Assembly (NCBI GenBank): GCA_042088665.1 | Contig: JBELMB010000004.1 | Coordinates: 5,054-69,053, forward strand | Length of the DNA: 64,000 bases | From: Sagittula sp. | GTDB lineage: Bacteria > Pseudomonadota > Alphaproteobacteria > Rhodobacterales > Rhodobacteraceae | Direction: 5' to 3' | In this document: piece by piece, positions 2,959 through 15,014 of the stretch | Layout of the letters: each line of letters opens with the position of its first letter | Position numbering within the stretch: the stretch's first letter is position 1 | Notes under the pieces: model-generated | Databases searched by the model: none | Told to the model about the DNA's origin: nothing | Seen by the model: the letters and a program-made list of their open reading frames with translations, nothing else | Made by a program: the position numbers and the translations under genes

Positions 2959-3095
2959 GCGCTGCCGCTTCGCTGCGTGAGCGCTGGTTGCTTGCGCTGC
3001 CGCTTCGCTGCGTGAGCGCTGGTTGCTTGCGCTGCCGCTTCGCTGCGTGAGCGCTTGTTTGTTTGCGCTATCGCTTCGCTGCGTGAGCGCGTTAT
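2959..3095. repeat. tandem array of four copies of a 35-36-bp unit (GCGCTGCCGCTTCGCTGCGTGAGCGCTGGTTGCTT)
   Basis: Copies at 2959-2993 and 2994-3028 are identical. The copy at 3029-3064 is 36 bp and diverges at its 3-prime end. The copy at 3065-~3095 is degenerate and abuts or overlaps the tssG stop at 3092-3094. Each unit contains GCGCT...AGCGC inverted arms. Confidence 0.9.
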
Positions 3096-5557
3096 GCTGC
3101 CTCCTTCTCGTCCCTCTCCTTGAGGGGCAAAAGTTTGAATTCCGTTGCGCGCACCAGAACGTCAGGGCTGCCTTTGGGCGGCGCGATGCAGGCCATCCAG
3201 CCGACAACCGCGTTCTGCCCCATGACCGCGGGCTGCACTTCGGGCTCGGGCAGCCACAGGACCACTTCGATCTCGTAGGCCTCGCCGAGGTACCAGAACA
3301 CCAGATCGCGCAGATGAGGGTGATAGCTGCCCGAGGGCAGAAGGCGAAAATAATCGCCGATTGTCTTCACTTCGAGGTGTACGCGGATCTTCTCTCCGAC
3401 AGAACGCACCCGGCTGCCCAGATGCGTGTCCATGCCCATCGTCGCCGATTGCATGCCGATATGGCTCAGCGTGTCCGGTTCGAAATCCAGCCATGTTGGC
3501 ACCAGCTCCTCGATCCGGACCGTCAGCTTGCCATCGAAGTGCAGTTGCAGGATCTGCCGCAGCCGCACCGGGCTCTTGACCCGGCCCGAGGCAAGCCCGG
3601 CATAGCGCGCCTTGATCGTGTCGGGCACGGCGTCCCGGTCCTGCATGGCCGGTGTGCCATTGCCCGCGAAGGACAGCAGGAAATCCTTGAACCGGTCCGC
3701 AGAAGGGTGGTCGAATTGCGTGATCGCATGGGCATCGGACCAGGCGCGGAAATACAGCTCCTGAAAGCGTTCGGTAAAGATGTCCACAAAGGCAACAAAA
3801 CTGTCGTCGCCATGGCGGAACCAGTGGTCGATCTCTTCGGTCCAGTTCAGCGGGAAAGCCCCGAACGGTCCAAAGAAACCAAGGAACTGCGCTCGCACGC
3901 GCGGCACCTTCTTTGTCGGGTCATAGCGCGCCATATCGGCTGGCGGCGGTCCCATGTAGGGATCCTGACCCATCCGCACCAACTGGTCATGCAGGCGGCT
4001 GTTCTTGCCGATCTGGGGCTTGTCGCCCGCCCGCCGCTCCAGCTTGCGCAGGAGTTGGAACAGCCCCTTGCCAAGCGCCTGCCACTCATGTTGCTCGCGG
4101 TCCGACAGGCCCGACGGCATGTCTTCCATCGGGTCATGCGTGTCGAGAGAAAGCTCCTCGATCCGGGTCGTCACCAGCCCGCGGAAGGTTTCCAGCGCCG
4201 CATCGTCCAGAAAGGCGTCCTGCGGATGACTGAGCCGCTGCGATGCCTCGCGCATGAATTGCAGCCGCGTGCCAGAGCGCAGGCCGCCCTTGGACCGGCG
4301 CCAGACGCGACGCAGGGTCGATGATAGCCCGTGTCCCTTCAGCGCCTGATCGAGGATCTCTTCGCGGGTCCAGGCCTCGCGCGGGACGTAACTCTGGAAG
4401 GCGGCGGGCGGGCGCGGTGCGGCAAGGGCAAAGCCCTCCGCCGGAGGGGACGCACTGTCGCTCGCCACGGGGGGGAAGGCGCTGGGCGGCTGGGTCGGGT
4501 CGTCGAACCAGTCCAGTTCGGTCGAGGCCGCGGCGGTGCCCATGGCGGGTGTGCGCGGCACCGGGGGACTGGTTTGCTCGTCGAACCAGTCGAGGCGCCC
4601 GTCTTCTGTCTGGATCTCTTCGCGGACCTTTTCGGCGGCCACAGGCGCCGGGGTGTCCGCCGGGGGTGTGTCAGGGGCTGCCGCAGCAGGGCCGCCCCCG
4701 AGGGGAGAGGCAACCTGAGGCAAATCCACTGGCGCGGGTGCGGGCTGTGCACCGGGCAACGGCGGAAAGGCCGGCGCGCCGGTCGCCGGTCCGGGGGGCA
4801 CCCGTCCGGGGGCAGATGCTTCGGGCAGCGGAGCAGCGGAGCGGCCTTTGGGAGGGGCAAACGGATTGCCGGGCGCGGGTCCGGGCGCAACAAACGGATT
4901 GCGAGGCGCCGCTGGCACATCCGCGGCAGGTAGAGTCTCGGGCAGATTTTCGGGCAGATTTTCGGGCAGGCTGCCGGGGCGCTGCGCAGCGGGCTGGCTG
5001 GAGGGCGCAGGCGCAGGTGATGGTGTTGGCGCTGCAAATGGATTGCGTGGGGACTGCGCATTGTCCGGCGCGACGAAGGGGTTGCGCAGCGGTGGCAACG
5101 CGCCCGACGCCGCAGCATCCGGAGAAGGCCCCGGGGGCGTGCTGGCGGGTGGCGCAAAAGGGTTGCGCGCCGGAGCGGGCGAAACAAAGGGATTGCGCGG
5201 TGCCTCGGACCCGGCAACGAAAGGCGTCGAGGCCTTTGGCAACGATGGCATTGGCGCTTGTGGAACGGAGGGCATCGGTCCCCCCGGAACAGGTTGGTTT
5301 TGTGCCCCCGGCAAGGGCTGGTCTTGCGCCCCCGGCACGGGTGGTCTTTGCGCCTCTGGCAAGGGCGGCCTCGGTGCCTCTGGAAGGGGCGGTCGCTGCG
5401 CCTCTGGCAGGGGGGGCGCGCCCGGTACTGCGGCTGGCGCACCAGTTGTCGCCGGGGCGTCCTTCTTCGTGGGCTGCGACGCGCCGGGTGGGGTCTGGTC
5501 CAGCCAGCCCATCACCGTCTTTTCGTCGTCATCATCCCAACCGGAGGATCCGCTCAT
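3092..5557 (-). CDS. tssG: T6SS baseplate protein TssG (ImpH family) with a ~490-aa N-terminal proline-rich extension
   Basis: The C-terminal ~330 aa fit the TssG pattern and typical TssG length (LFQLLRKLE..., FLGFFGPFGAFPLNWTEEI...). The start is placed at ATG 5557 because it forms an ATGA overlap with the tssF stop (5554-5556). The ORF track offers an upstream ATG at 5590. Confidence 0.85.
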   Translation of the reverse strand: MSGSSGWDDDDEKTVMGWLDQTPPGASQPTKKDAPATTGAPAAVPGAPPLPEAQRPPLPEAPRPPLPEAQRPPVPGAQDQPLPGAQNQPVPGGPMPSVPQAPMPSLPKASTPFVAGSEAPRNPFVSPAPARNPFAPPASTPPGPSPDAAASGALPPLRNPFVAPDNAQSPRNPFAAPTPSPAPAPSSQPAAQRPGSLPENLPENLPETLPAADVPAAPRNPFVAPGPAPGNPFAPPKGRSAAPLPEASAPGRVPPGPATGAPAFPPLPGAQPAPAPVDLPQVASPLGGGPAAAAPDTPPADTPAPVAAEKVREEIQTEDGRLDWFDEQTSPPVPRTPAMGTAAASTELDWFDDPTQPPSAFPPVASDSASPPAEGFALAAPRPPAAFQSYVPREAWTREEILDQALKGHGLSSTLRRVWRRSKGGLRSGTRLQFMREASQRLSHPQDAFLDDAALETFRGLVTTRIEELSLDTHDPMEDMPSGLSDREQHEWQALGKGLFQLLRKLERRAGDKPQIGKNSRLHDQLVRMGQDPYMGPPPADMARYDPTKKVPRVRAQFLGFFGPFGAFPLNWTEEIDHWFRHGDDSFVAFVDIFTERFQELYFRAWSDAHAITQFDHPSADRFKDFLLSFAGNGTPAMQDRDAVPDTIKARYAGLASGRVKSPVRLRQILQLHFDGKLTVRIEELVPTWLDFEPDTLSHIGMQSATMGMDTHLGSRVRSVGEKIRVHLEVKTIGDYFRLLPSGSYHPHLRDLVFWYLGEAYEIEVVLWLPEPEVQPAVMGQNAVVGWMACIAPPKGSPDVLVRATEFKLLPLKERDEKEAA

Positions 5558-7482
5558 AGCACGCGGCCTCCACCTAGCCGCGGAGGCCATGTCTTCAGGT
5601 GTCCGCGCTGATGCGAACGAATCACCGTCTTCGTGAACGAATTGACAGAGGCGTATTCCGCCAGAAACCGGTCCAGCACCGCGCCCAGCAGCATCACACC
5701 CGACCCTTCAAAGGCGTCTTCGTCAAAGGTCAGCGTCACCTCAAGGCCCCGCGCGGTGTGAAAGCCCTCCGGGTGCGGGATCGAGGCGGGCACCTGCCGC
5801 GTCTCCACATTCAGCAGACCGTCGATCTGCATCTCCATGAAGCTGTCCGACAGATCGGCAAAGATGCGCATCATTTCGCGCAGCGCCGCCGCCGCATCGT
5901 CCCCCGTGCGTCCGAGCAAACCGTAGGTGTTCAGGGACAAGTGGCTGAGCAACCGCCAGTAGACATCACCCGACTGGGTGCGGTGCGGCGCGCTGGTTTC
6001 CAGATCCGCAAGGCTGTCGCGCGGTGACGTTGGCCCGTCGATGCAGGCGAGACGGATCGTGCTCTCGTCGCAGAAATAGAAATCCTCTTCGCCCTGCTTG
6101 ATCGGCAGTTCCCCGGCAAGATGCCGGTTGGAACACAGCCCCTTGATCTGCAACCGCTGCACCGGCTGGTCCTCGGGCGGCTCGTAGAGGGTGATAAATG
6201 TCTCTGTCCCCCGATAGCGCGACCGCGACACGCCTTGTCTGCGTTCCTGCACCGTCATGCGCCGCTTCTTCTTGCGGTCGGTGAAATACAGCGCATGGCG
6301 CGGGTTCGACCCCACGGAGGGCAGGGTGTACAGCTCAAACACCCGGGTCTTGCCGGTGTTGCCCTTGTAGTGGGCGAAGACTTCCGTGACACGGTGGAAC
6401 TCGTAGTGGGTGACGGGGCTCGACAGCGGTTGCACCACGTAGTCATGGCGCTTTTCGTCCAGCCGCACCGGCGCGGCGGCCTCTTCGAACAGATTGACCG
6501 CAGGCGCACAATGCAGGCGCACGTGACCGGTCGAAAGCTGCGCCGCAAGCTTTTGATTTGCCTTGTCAAACTCAAAGATGATCTGAGCGCGCGATCCCGG
6601 CACACGCTTCCAGAAATCGCCCAGCCCGGACACCCTGAACCCAAGGAATTTGCGCGGATAGACGAACATCTCACGCAGAAGGGCAAAGCCCTCAAAGAGC
6701 CGGTCGTCATGGGGAAACAGCCGTTCCGTGCTGTCAAAACCGACCTGCTCGATCTGGTGCGGGGCCAGCGTCTGGAACACGTCGTCGCCCAGCTTGTTCT
6801 GCCAGCGCAGCGAAACCTTGATCCGGTCGCAAAAGATCTGCTCGTACAATGCGACGGCCTCATCCATCGGTGCCGCGAGATGAAAGACGAGCGCGTCAGC
6901 GGCCAGATCGGTGATCTTTTCGCTGTCGTCGGTCTGTCCAGTGGCGCCCAGTCGCGCAATGTCCAGCAGGACACCGGCCTGCGTGCCCTTGGCGGGCTCC
7001 GGCACCACCGCGCCCACCTGACCCGTGCGCGACAGGTAGCGCACTTCGGCCATCTCCACCGGATAAAGCTCCATCGGCGCGGCGAGGGCAAATCGGCAGG
7101 ACACACGTTTTTCGGAATCCACGTAGCGCGCTTCGAGGTAGTCGCCCGGGTTGAAACGCAGCCCCTCGACGGTCTTGGGATCCTCGTGCGGTGGGTTGGC
7201 GCGCACGGTCATCACGCTTGGCGTGGGTTCCATAAGACCGGGTAGAAGCTGGTCCAGAAGCTCACGGGTGAACCCGCGGAACTCCTCCTCCATCTTCAAC
7301 TGGACGCGCGCCGCAAGGAAGGCGCTGCCTTCCAGCAGAGCCGCCGCGGTCGGGTCCATGTTCTCTTCGAGCAAGCCGCCAAGGCGGTCGGCAAGCCCCG
7401 GATATTCCTGTGCAAATTCCTTGGCGCGTTCTTTCAGAAGCGCCAGTTCCCGGTTGTATGAATCGCGAAAGGCCTGTTTCAC
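5554..7482 (-). CDS. tssF: T6SS baseplate protein TssF (ImpG family)
   Basis: 642 aa. The N-terminus (MKQAFRDSYNRELALLKERAKEFAQEYPGLADRL) matches the conserved TssF start. The GTG start at 7482 overlaps the tssE stop (GTGA). Confidence 0.9.
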   Translation of the reverse strand: MKQAFRDSYNRELALLKERAKEFAQEYPGLADRLGGLLEENMDPTAAALLEGSAFLAARVQLKMEEEFRGFTRELLDQLLPGLMEPTPSVMTVRANPPHEDPKTVEGLRFNPGDYLEARYVDSEKRVSCRFALAAPMELYPVEMAEVRYLSRTGQVGAVVPEPAKGTQAGVLLDIARLGATGQTDDSEKITDLAADALVFHLAAPMDEAVALYEQIFCDRIKVSLRWQNKLGDDVFQTLAPHQIEQVGFDSTERLFPHDDRLFEGFALLREMFVYPRKFLGFRVSGLGDFWKRVPGSRAQIIFEFDKANQKLAAQLSTGHVRLHCAPAVNLFEEAAAPVRLDEKRHDYVVQPLSSPVTHYEFHRVTEVFAHYKGNTGKTRVFELYTLPSVGSNPRHALYFTDRKKKRRMTVQERRQGVSRSRYRGTETFITLYEPPEDQPVQRLQIKGLCSNRHLAGELPIKQGEEDFYFCDESTIRLACIDGPTSPRDSLADLETSAPHRTQSGDVYWRLLSHLSLNTYGLLGRTGDDAAAALREMMRIFADLSDSFMEMQIDGLLNVETRQVPASIPHPEGFHTARGLEVTLTFDEDAFEGSGVMLLGAVLDRFLAEYASVNSFTKTVIRSHQRGHLKTWPPRLGGGRVL

Positions 7483-12745: not shown

Positions 12746-14362
12746 TTATTCCCGGTGCACGTTGGCCTCGGCATAGGCGCGCGCAAAGGCTTGCAGGAAG
12801 GCATCGAGAATGCCGTGTTCCCCGGCCTGGGCCTTGCTGTCCCAGCGTTCCACATAGGCCTGCCACAGCTTGGCCGCGCCGCCCCCGCCCCCAAAGAGGT
12901 TGGACCCGGTGCCGTCGCAGGCGGCTTCGATCTCTTCGGGGGACAGACCGCCAAAAACCTCGGCCAGCGCCGGTTGCAGCGCGCGGAACACGGCCTCCTG
13001 ATGCAGGCGGATGTCCTTGAGCGCATCGTCAAAGCTGTCCGCCCCCATCATGAAACCGTCGCGCGGGGCGACGAACATCAGTTCCAGCGCCTGCTGGCTG
13101 TCGGGCATGAATTTCATCGGGTTGTTGGCATTGGCCGACAACATCGTCCGCACGCCGCCGCGGGTAAAGTTCTTTACGTCGGCGCGCGCCTTGAGCATCA
13201 GCATGATCTCTTCGGTGGCGATCCGCGAACACCGGCCCAGCATGTGCATCAGGCCAATGGCATCCTCGGGCTTCAGCGCATTGGGATCCAGCCCGGCGCC
13301 TTCGCAAAAGGCGCGTAGGGCCGCCGTGACATCCCCGCCCTGTCCGCCACCCTGTGCACCGGGCGTTGCGGGGGCTGCAGCGGCTATCTGCGATGCCGCC
13401 TCTGGCAATGGCCCCGGTGTCGAAACCGGGCTGGGCACGGGCGAGGGGATCGGTGCCGACGTGGGCCGCGGCATCGGTGCGGCGGGTGTTGGTTCCCCCA
13501 GGGATCGGGGCGCGGGCGAGTCGAACTCATCCTGCGGCGGAGATGCCGGGGGCGCAGAGGGGATCTCTGCCACCGGTGCAGGCTCCGGCGGTGTGTCTTG
13601 ACCCAATGTCGGCACATAGGCAGGCGTCAGCGCGGGCTCCGGCGCGGCCGGAATCGGCGGAGGCGCCGGTGGGATCGGCAAACCACCCGGGGCCGCGGGG
13701 GGCACCGCATCGGTCTGGGCGGGGGTCTGGGGCGGGGTTTGGGGCGGGCCTGCAGGCACCTGCACGCCGGGGGTTTGCATGCCCGGAGTTTGCACACCGG
13801 GCATGCCGCCCTGCGTGTACATGGGAATCTGCAACGAGTTTTCTGTCTTCAGGCCCGGCTGCGCGCCCGGCCCGGTCTGCAATCCGCGTGGCCCACCCGG
13901 CAGTGGCACGAACCCTCCACCAAGGTCGTCCAGCGATCCCCCGGGGGACATGGGCCGCGACGGTGGCGGCGCCACCGGTTCGGACGGCCCCGGAAAGACG
14001 TCCCATTCATCCGGTCCCCCCGCAGCGACCTGCGGCTGCGCGCTGGGCAGGTCAACGGCGATGATGTAGTGACCCACGATCAGCCGTTCACCGCCGCGCA
14101 GCGCCAACTCGCCCTGAATGCGGTGGCCCTGGCCGTCCACAAAGGTGCCGTTGGTGGAGACATCCGTCAGCAGGTAGATGCCATCCCGGAACGTGACATC
14201 GAAATGGTGGCCAGAGATCATCTTGCTCGGGTCCGGCAAGGTCCAGTCCATCGACCCGCGCCGGCCAATGCTTGCGCCATGGCCGTCGAGCTGCAGCCAG
14301 GTTGGTCCGCCTGTCTCCAGCTGGTCAAAGTTCTCGATTCGCAAAATCAGTGTCATCGGCAC
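12746..14362 (-). CDS. tagH: T6SS-associated FHA-domain protein TagH (Fha)
   Basis: N-terminal FHA domain (GRRGSMDWTLPD...ISGHHFDV...YLLTDVSTNGTFV). A Pro-rich linker follows, then a C-terminal region like the TagH C-domain. Confidence 0.88.
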   Translation of the reverse strand: MPMTLILRIENFDQLETGGPTWLQLDGHGASIGRRGSMDWTLPDPSKMISGHHFDVTFRDGIYLLTDVSTNGTFVDGQGHRIQGELALRGGERLIVGHYIIAVDLPSAQPQVAAGGPDEWDVFPGPSEPVAPPPSRPMSPGGSLDDLGGGFVPLPGGPRGLQTGPGAQPGLKTENSLQIPMYTQGGMPGVQTPGMQTPGVQVPAGPPQTPPQTPAQTDAVPPAAPGGLPIPPAPPPIPAAPEPALTPAYVPTLGQDTPPEPAPVAEIPSAPPASPPQDEFDSPAPRSLGEPTPAAPMPRPTSAPIPSPVPSPVSTPGPLPEAASQIAAAAPATPGAQGGGQGGDVTAALRAFCEGAGLDPNALKPEDAIGLMHMLGRCSRIATEEIMLMLKARADVKNFTRGGVRTMLSANANNPMKFMPDSQQALELMFVAPRDGFMMGADSFDDALKDIRLHQEAVFRALQPALAEVFGGLSPEEIEAACDGTGSNLFGGGGGAAKLWQAYVERWDSKAQAGEHGILDAFLQAFARAYAEANVHRE

Positions 14363-14411: not shown

Positions 14412-15014
14412 TCAACGGATCCGGAAAAGCTCTGACGTTTGGTCGATAAATCGCTGCAGGCGCACCGGACGCTGCTGCAGTTCGGCCCGCGCCAGACTGG
14501 ACAGCACGGCGGAATTGATCGCGCGCGGTGCGCGGTGCACGGGGACCTGCGCGGTGTCGTTGGGCGCAATCGGCCCGCCGGACCAGCCCACCGCCAGCCC
14601 GAGAAAGACCGCCGGGCTGCGCTGCGGTGCGAAAAGCGCGCGGTGCATCACCTGATAGCGATTCTCGTTGTCGGAGTAGCTGCACCATTTGGCCACCAGT
14701 TCCATAAGCTCGCGGTCTGCATGGCTCATGTCATCGCTGGCCACGCGCAGACACTCATAGGCCCACCAGATCGCCATCGGTGGCACCGCTGCAAAGGCCG
14801 CGAAGGTGACCGCCTCTTCGGGGGTGGTGGATCCCGCAAGTCGCTGCAGGTAGGCGAGGTTGTCCTCGTCATCGCGTGGGCGGTGCTGGGTCATGTGCTT
14901 GACCTGCGGCATCGCGCCATAAAGTTCGAACGGGGTCTCGTAACGCAGCGCCGACATGGGCGGCTGCGTCTTTTCGGTTTCCTCGTCGTCGATGTCTTGC
15001 ACGTCGCTTGCCAT
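14412..15014 (-). CDS. uncharacterised protein, first gene of the T6SS operon
   Basis: 200-aa ORF, same strand, 49 nt upstream of tagH. Acidic N-terminus and no signal peptide. From memory it resembles a DUF (possibly DUF6931-type) seen next to T6SS loci. This has not been verified. Confidence 0.6.
   Translation of the reverse strand: MASDVQDIDDEETEKTQPPMSALRYETPFELYGAMPQVKHMTQHRPRDDEDNLAYLQRLAGSTTPEEAVTFAAFAAVPPMAIWWAYECLRVASDDMSHADRELMELVAKWCSYSDNENRYQVMHRALFAPQRSPAVFLGLAVGWSGGPIAPNDTAQVPVHRAPRAINSAVLSSLARAELQQRPVRLQRFIDQTSELFRIR

Follow-up and report, generated by a model that had tools for sequence, protein, structure and literature searches.

A long N-terminal arm on the type VI secretion baseplate protein TssG of marine Rhodobacterales and its threonine motif shared with TssL and the secretion kinase

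How the baseplate of type VI secretion systems (T6SSs) is recruited to the membrane complex, and how PpkA, PppA and Fha act on that step, are matters of debate, with outside-in assembly on one side and an Fha-initiated, inside-out order on the other. The known targets of phosphorylation are Fha itself, such as Fha1 of Pseudomonas aeruginosa, and, in Agrobacterium, TssL. Here, we analyse a stretch of 64,000 nucleotides from Sagittula sp. (contig JBELMB010000004.1 of assembly GCA_042088665.1; hereafter the window) which encodes a T6SS whose baseplate subunit TssG carries a long N-terminal arm ahead of its canonical core. In Agrobacterium tumefaciens, PpkA phosphorylates TssL at Thr14, and the FHA domain of Fha binds the peptide DNPSSWQDLPpTVVEITEESR only if it is phosphorylated, a step which activates secretion (PMC3953482). 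Fha is also linked to TssG. It pulls down TssG in Acidovorax citrulli and is needed there for TssG foci, TssG foci in Vibrio cholerae likewise require Fha, and an N-terminal sfGFP-TssG fusion is functional in both organisms (bioRxiv 10.1101/2023.12.21.572528). Furthermore, condensates of Fha and PpkA recruit T6SS parts (PMC13389060; PMC12607579; bioRxiv 10.1101/2023.12.21.572528).

The window protein shares with canonical TssG (enteroaggregative Escherichia coli, PDB 6GIY and 6GJ1; 6N38 chain G) the family match over its C-terminal 324 residues, the fold, and the gene position, flanked by tssF, with which it overlaps by 4 nt, and by tssH. It differs in having about 497 extra N-terminal residues, of which around 390 are predicted to be disordered and which also include a clade-specific helical module, whereas most Rhodobacterales orthologues (50-73% core identity) have 0-40 residues ahead of the core. 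Its extreme N-terminus resembles the Thr14 site of Agrobacterium TssL (Lin et al., 2014; PMC3953482) in that both place a threonine at residue 14, within a disordered N-terminus, and have valine and a hydrophobic residue after it and tryptophan and acidic residues just upstream. Unlike that site, the motif sits on the baseplate protein TssG rather than on the membrane protein TssL, and has a long acidic run and a lysine or arginine before the threonine. The long-form TssL proteins of Rhodobacterales (Sagittula, Leisingera, Rhodovulum and Paracoccus) follow the same motif grammar as the arm within Pro/Gln-rich disorder; there, however, the disorder precedes a DotU domain, a transmembrane segment and an OmpA domain, whereas the TssG arm precedes a baseplate core and has the helical module, and the two regions are unalignable apart from the motifs. 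Finally, the Fha/TagH scaffold of A. citrulli and V. cholerae is, like the window TssG, a T6SS assembly protein with long Pro-rich disorder, but in the window's system the disorder sits on TssG itself, as predicted from sequence alone. Our search of the literature found no description of an N-terminal arm on TssG or of TssG as a phosphorylation target. What is new here is the architecture of TssG and a plausible regulatory link, the protein and the system being already known. We regard it as close to certain that the extension is real, that it is under selection and that it bears motifs. That it might be a TssL-like phospho-docking region which ties the baseplate to TagH/PpkA is a tentative reading, to which we give somewhat less than an even chance.

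A single-gene TssG with a long N-terminal arm

The complementary strand of the window encodes a genuine, single-gene TssG at positions 3092-5557. The open reading frame (ORF) extends across 3092-5590 on this strand. A further in-frame ATG at 5590, within tssF, is not used by the homologues, and those of Sagittula share both the start at the 4-nt overlap and the N-terminal sequence. A first-pass annotation of the window had proposed a continuous frame with its start fixed by the ATGA overlap, and a TssG-like core in the last ~330 residues behind an extension of ~490; the frame and start are borne out, and the two parts measure 324 and 497 residues. The core matches Pfam PF06996 (residues 499-791, E=3e-70, 237.2 bits against a cut-off of 24.6) and TIGR03347 (residues 498-791, with 237.7 bits where the cut-off is 143.3). 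In an AlphaFold2 model its predicted local distance difference test score (pLDDT) is ~90, and its best structural matches in Foldseek are the TssG chains of solved baseplate wedges, 6giy_C (E=7e-10) and 6n38_G (E=9e-10). The placement of the gene, in the order tssE-tssF-tssG-tssH and with the ATGA overlap onto tssF, is that of tssG. In size, the protein stands apart from canonical TssGs (~300-370 residues with a short N-terminus), and the 497 residues ahead of the core make it a variant in architecture while leaving its family membership unaffected.

Independent assemblies speak to the concern, raised in the same annotation, that the extension might reflect a frameshift or a fusion. The whole of tssG is present without differences in the Logan contigs of three runs, which are separate metagenome assemblies, and a fourth run from a different study covers it partly. 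The variants that do occur are in frame: in one run a 6-nt insertion behind position 5003 gives an 823-residue allele (P0139), and in another metagenome an allele has lost 12 nt within the LPEN repeat. In other genera, complete plasmids of cultured strains among them, either end of the arm is conserved and lies in this same frame, and no orthologous locus has two genes in place of one. The arm is nevertheless cut off or missing in several public records, which our analysis corrects. An NCBI record in the same 90% cluster (P0140) has 516 residues only, starting at V306, so that the NPF region described below is unannotated there. The nr entry of Sagittula salina (P0020) has 341 residues, against an uninterrupted genomic ORF of 707 residues that starts at the tssF overlap. 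These short public calls of long-arm tssG genes are annotation truncations. The Thetidibacter protein (P0022) is annotated at 403 residues, with its start inside the helical module.

A word-indexed search with the whole protein matched only itself, as low-complexity words saturated the candidates, and a scan of genome contigs with a narrow alignment found two Sagittula loci only and under-samples taxonomic breadth. A search with the core alone returned hundreds of TssGs of ~350 residues at 47-63% identity (from Sulfitobacter, Leisingera, Rhodovulum, Thioclava, Paracoccus and others), while a core-based search limited to long proteins gave 12 relatives of 459-726 residues. As the first-pass annotation had supposed, canonical TssGs lack such an extension: most close relatives have ~350 residues, and 111 of the 127 compared have at most 45 ahead of the core. 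In a tree built on the core, those long proteins which have the helical module in common group into a single clade of Roseobacteraceae/Paracoccaceae TssGs (P0002-P0011, P0120, P0022 and the truncated P0020). Their arms measure 102-497 residues, with 102-150 among the basal members and 257-497 in the crown, and the arm of the window protein is the longest. A Loktanella-like lineage (P0012, P0013) has separately gained a different, acidic arm, which also contains DNDRTVM. Cultured members of the clade include Sagittula stellata E-37, Sagittula sp. P11, MA-2, S175 and S. salina. RefSeq annotates tssG at 580-581 residues in two cultured Sagittula strains; that of S. stellata E-37, at 580 residues, lies on a 106-kb RepABC plasmid.

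Conserved across this clade, although not in every member, are a cap at the extreme N-terminus, (S)-(D)-G-W-DDDE-K-T-V-[ML]-x-W-L-D, which holds the best-conserved short motif of the arm, and DWF[DE] or WLD; the helical module follows the arm. The arms also carry 0-8 further copies of [acidic]-[KR]-T-V-[FLIM]-x-x-x-L-P, with up to eight acidic-KTV copies in the arms of Sagittula. The first-pass annotation had put its emphasis on the NPF motifs. These are real, and the sequence agrees exactly with its description of six [RG]NPF[VA] motifs, at residues 122, 132, 159, 172, 220 and 231 (RNPFV, RNPFA, RNPFV, RNPFA, RNPFV and GNPFA), and of two LDWFD motifs, each followed by xxxxPP, with an N-terminal GWLDQTPP at residue 17. 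However, no other member of the clade has NPF, and the conserved acidic-KTV motif had been missed. As judged from these sequence comparisons, the NPF array is a lineage-specific elaboration.

The extension is Pro/Ala-rich, as had been described, with 21% Pro and 16% Ala. Composition does not produce the motifs: 20,000 shuffles of the arm gave a mean of 0.07 NPF and 0.04 W[FL]D, and none reached the observed six and three. The codons of the NPF motif differ between the six units (AAT/AAC; CCC/CCT/CCA/CCG; TTT/TTC), which argues that these are not recent copy-paste repeats, and the flanks have diverged to 68-82% DNA identity over 38 nt; together, these observations suggest that the amino-acid motif was kept while the DNA drifted. 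In the AlphaFold2 model, built on a 127-sequence alignment, residues 1-390 have pLDDT <50 and no secondary structure, so that the arm up to residue ~390 is predicted to be intrinsically disordered. Four helices are predicted at residues 398-469. The possibly folded segment of ~100 residues that had been noticed ahead of the core is thereby supported in outline, although with modest confidence (pLDDT 53-70). An exhaustive search of 1.84 billion representatives with its 104-residue sequence retrieved only P0004, itself of this clade, and a pair of repeat proteins that are spurious matches, and a PDB profile search and a Pfam scan at E<=10 gave no match; by sequence comparison, the module is an orphan that has no detectable relative outside its TssG clade. 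An Azospirillum plasmid match to this segment was rejected as an out-of-frame overlap with tssF, there being no extension at that locus.

Table 1. Features of tssG and associated genes in the window (positions count from the first nucleotide of the window)
Feature	Position	Strand	Remark
tssG coding sequence, 821 residues including the arm	3092..5557	-	start codon at 5557 and stop codon of tssF overlap in the sequence ATGA; identical in independent assemblies
Canonical TssG core, residues 498-821 plus stop codon	3092..4066	-	
Helical module, residues ~393-469, clade-specific	4151..4381	-	four predicted helices
LDWFD motif 2, LDWFDDPTQPP, residues 348-358	4484..4516	-	
LDWFD motif 1, LDWFDEQTSPP, residues 322-332	4562..4594	-	DWF[DE] kept across the long-arm clade
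NPF array, six [RG]NPF[VA][AS]P units in three pairs, residues ~118-237	4847..5206	-	specific to the window lineage
Tandem repeat of 12 nt encoding LPEN-LPEN-LPET	4938..4969	-	
Tandem repeats of 24/48 nt, in frame, encoding PPLPEA(Q/P)R x3 and P(L/V)PGAQ(D/N)Q	5281..5417	-	
N-terminal cap W7-DDDDE-K13-T14-V15-M16-G-W-L-D-QTPP	5486..5539	-	conserved at the N-terminus of most long-arm TssGs
tssF	5554..7482	-	directly upstream of and translationally coupled to tssG
tagH: FHA domain, Pro-rich linker, T6SS_FHA_C	12746..14362	-	proposed reader of the arm Thr motif

An acidic threonine motif in TssG, TssL and the secretion kinase

The cap belongs to a class of motif in which an acidic run is followed by lysine or arginine, threonine, valine and a hydrophobic residue (acidic-[KR]-T-V-hydrophobic; hereafter the KTV motif). 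Its threonine, T14, lies within WDDDDEKTVMGW at pLDDT <50 and is therefore predicted to be exposed and disordered, as in the comparable SSWQDLPpTVVEI of A. tumefaciens. An acidic run ahead of a threonine with hydrophobic residues behind it fits the preferences of bacterial Hanks-type kinases. We scanned the window together with six related loci (~310 kb), in coding-like frames, for the pattern [DE][DE].{0,2}[KR]T[VM][FLIM]. All 11 matches fall in TssG arms, in TssL N-termini (two from Sagittula, and those of Leisingera and Rhodovulum) or in the N-terminus of the T6SS kinase (two from Sagittula), and a rough calculation puts the number expected by chance at well under one.

The TssL and kinase sequences come from relatives in which these genes are within reach. 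On the S. stellata plasmid, tssK, tssL, tssM, tagF, a PP2C phosphatase gene and a Ser/Thr kinase gene lie 14-26 kb beyond clpV, and Sagittula sp. P11 has the same T6SS set. The S. stellata TssL (605 residues, with DotU and OmpA domains) starts MASDDDNEKTVFGQAIP...DPERTVFGTPISP...EDTWLG, and the kinase (776 residues) starts ...PEDDDDDERTVFRPPTPP. Genera with short TssGs have the motif on TssL too, as read directly from their annotated tssL genes: TssL begins MAEDDDKTVFGQPIP in Leisingera, MADNDDDDDKTVFGQPLP in Rhodovulum and MAGRDEDRDKTVFG...DRTVIG...EDTWIG in Paracoccus aminophilus. A tblastn search with the N-terminal 60 residues of TssL, a short and low-complexity query, found Sagittula only. 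The two types of motif in the arm, acidic-KTV and acidic-Trp, are thus also those of the disordered region of TssL. That TssL and the T6SS kinase have the threonine motif in common points to the threonine-phosphorylation/TagH pathway rather than to endocytic motifs of the eukaryotic kind.

Some further observations concern TssL and the kinase in their own right. Long-form Rhodobacterales TssL proteins have a Pro/Gln-rich disordered region of 150-200 residues ahead of DotU (S. stellata L007:1455-3272; L020, L021, L025), with a series of motifs that runs from acidic-KTVFG at about residue 10 through a second RTV[FI]G to EDTW[LI]G. From its sequence, this series resembles a counterpart to the Thr14 site on TssL of Agrobacterium, and it has apparently not been described before. 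The 5′ end of tssL in Sagittula sp. P11 (L019:30640-30940) encodes the motif region, MASDDDDNEKTVFG..., in another frame than the annotated DotU part of 505 residues, which is either an assembly frameshift or a real split. The Sagittula kinase (L007:8511-10841; L019:21529-23883) has a disordered N-terminal extension of 177 residues ahead of its kinase domain; it begins ...EDDDDDERTVF, followed by EDDDDEDERTQF, a motif of the same class as those in TssL and TssG, and may hold an autophosphorylation or FHA-docking site.

Possible roles of the arm

In one marine Rhodobacterales clade the N-terminus of TssG has gained an arm, predicted to be disordered, and a small helical module before the baseplate core, and we propose that the arm would act through the same hub as TssL. 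The acidic-KTV motif of Rhodobacterales TssL would be the equivalent of the Agrobacterium Thr14 site, given that it lies in the same protein and at the same position and has the same T-V-hydrophobic sequence, and the copies on the kinase and on TssG could then be further sites for a PpkA-type kinase. Once phosphorylated, the threonine motif would be bound by the FHA domain of TagH. With the arm, the six wedges of the baseplate would in this way each have a TssL-like handle by which to reach the TagH/PpkA hub, and recruitment of the baseplate would be coupled to the phosphorylation switch. The LDWFD and GWLD motifs echo EDTW[LI]G of TssL and the DPW motif of TagH, and these acidic-Trp motifs, together with the array of six NPF units, would most likely be additional multivalent 'stickers' for the same hub. 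A scaffold or recruitment arm on the baseplate was also what the first-pass annotation had in mind, and from the sequence comparisons recruitment still appears the most reasonable class of function, although NPF is not the conserved motif of the arm. If the proposal is correct, a TssG with the motif of TssL and the kinase would tie the switch to the baseplate directly. In its fullest form it would have the acidic-[KR]-T-V motif mark the kinase, TssL and TssG, TssG be a direct target of the phospho-switch, and the number of copies (0-8), with NPF and DWF, tune assembly in each lineage; this wider scheme is rather unlikely to hold as a whole.

Several observations weigh against a phospho-docking role. 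The window protein has one KTV motif only, and P0003, the relative closest to it, lacks KTV but carries four DWF[DE], which implies that the threonine motif is not indispensable to the arm; the basal members P0009 and P0010 have neither KTV nor DWF[DE]. The NPF array, as noted, is confined to the window protein within the clade. At position +3 after the threonine stands G, A or R, none of them a classic preference of FHA domains, and the Agrobacterium motif has no acidic run. Finally, the motif on TssL and the kinase was read in relatives, as the contigs of the window organism end before tssL, the kinase and the phosphatase.

Two other accounts of the arm are improbable in about equal degree. 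According to the first, it is tolerated, near-neutral low-complexity growth by replication slippage at a solvent-exposed N-terminus, with the motifs as by-products of the repeats. The range of arm length within the clade, the in-frame tandem DNA repeats, the indel alleles in populations and the unalignable middle of the arm between genera would all follow, and TssG evidently tolerates N-terminal sfGFP fusions. However, genera whose arms cannot be aligned elsewhere still share the cap, DWF[DE] and the helical module, the NPF amino-acid motif is kept while codons and flanks differ, it is specifically in TssL and the kinase that the KTV motif turns up again, and every observed indel is in frame. 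According to the second, the arm would be a sticker-and-spacer region that works independently of threonine phosphorylation, its NPF and DWF motifs drawing TssG into TagH/Fha/PpkA condensates or binding TssA, TssK, ClpV or DUF6931. The known recruitment of T6SS components by Fha and PpkA condensates is in keeping with this, as are the acidic-Trp motifs that this type of T6SS also has in the linkers of TagH and the disordered regions of TssL, and the retention of four DWF[DE] without KTV in P0003. Within the window, NPF and DWF are absent from TagH, TssA and DUF6931. Such a mechanism leaves the sharing of KTV with TssL and the kinase unexplained, and it overlaps with phospho-docking rather than excluding it.

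It is very unlikely that the gene has two products, the long form and a TssG of canonical length made from an internal start such as Met480 just ahead of the core. This methionine (..EDMPSGL..) is kept in the six closest homologues, where canonical TssGs begin; annotation pipelines have chosen internal starts (341 residues in S. salina and 516 at NCBI), and Vibrio offers a precedent in its two Fha isoforms (PMC13389060). Against this, a GGAGG read by eye ends only 2 nt before the Met480 ATG, Met480 is not conserved in basal clade members, the short annotated starts are most simply model-guided truncations, and the overlap of 4 nt with tssF speaks for translation coupled to that gene and starting at 5557. 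That the extension is an artefact of assembly or annotation (through a frameshift, a chimera or the merging of two neighbouring genes) has a negligible chance, for although other frames are also open in this GC-rich region and NCBI annotates 516 residues only, three runs give identical contigs, which a second study supports in part, both arm ends keep their frame in other genera and on complete plasmids, and no two-gene locus was found among the orthologues.

Arrays of NPF, DPW and DWF in Pro-rich disorder recall epsin and Eps15, and the first-pass annotation had floated an analogy with these eukaryotic motifs. That the arm mimics endocytic motifs (NPF-EH; DPW/DWF-AP-2) inside a eukaryotic host or prey cell is scarcely credible, since nothing beyond the letters of the motifs speaks for it (no search for EH domains was made), TssG is a cytoplasmic structural subunit of the baseplate that is not secreted, NPF is absent in all relatives and the conserved motifs are common to cytoplasmic regions of TssL, TagH and the kinase. 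The NPF units ([R]-N-P-F-[AV]-[AP]-P) were also considered as decayed KTVF units ([KR]-T-V-F-[AG]-x-[LP]-P); the likeness is limited to R-x-x-F-A-P and the NPF units have no acidic run, and we leave this idea as speculation.

The tentative phospho-docking role is open to direct testing in culturable strains, of which S. stellata E-37 has the whole system on its 106-kb plasmid. Whatever the outcome, the arms are a clean case from nature of how short motifs evolve in disordered bacterial sequence, with a copy number of 0-8 and lineage-specific NPF arrays.

TagH and the surrounding T6SS genes

The genes around tssG all lie on the same strand, in the order DUF6931, tagH, tssA, tssB, tssC, hcp, tssE, tssF, tssG and tssH/clpV, and vgrG is found 15 kb away. 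The window's TagH keeps the residues GR, SxxH and NG, which, from reading by eye against the textbook pattern, we take to be the FHA signature. An acidic D-[PE]-W-[GAD] motif occurs 10-30 residues past the FHA domain in the TagH of the window and of five related loci (L001, L002, L006, L020 and L025); in the window it reads GPDEWDVF and stands at the start of the Pro-rich linker. The DUF6931 protein, product of the first gene of the operon (14412-15014, next to tagH), and its homologues in L001, L002 and L020 have a conserved N-terminal [DE]-K-T-[QR]-P-P-[MLV]-S-x-L-R-[YF] after an acidic stretch.

The window holds TagH, and the other regulatory components are seen on the T6SS replicons of its Sagittula relatives, where in both S. 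stellata E-37 and P11 tagF and the genes for the PP2C phosphatase and the Ser/Thr kinase are next to tssM, tssL and tssK. The counterpart region of the window organism lies beyond the window. To the left, look-ups of exact proteins reached an ExbB-ExbD-ExbD set in this organism, and its metagenome contigs (L013:1-525, L015-L018) all end 345-525 nt inside the gene that follows the second exbD. The product of this gene is a homologue of an acidic-repeat membrane protein, and a repeat there probably defeats short-read assembly.

All the Rhodobacterales T6SS loci inspected (L006:26591-37959; L019; L020; L021; L025; and L013, from the window organism) have a conserved block that separates clpV from the kinase or tssK. 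It encodes one or two hypothetical proteins, DUF1036, ExbB, a pair of ExbD and a membrane protein whose repeat region is very acidic, and in most loci an M23 peptidase as well, which suggests a T6SS-associated motor module of the Tol/Ton-like kind. Past clpV, to the left of the window, the window organism (L009:2948-7553) also has cargo-like genes for proteins of 333, 376 and 369 residues, the last with a weak PG_binding_1 match, and a transposase and a resolvase are inserted ahead of the M23 gene in this region, which varies between relatives.

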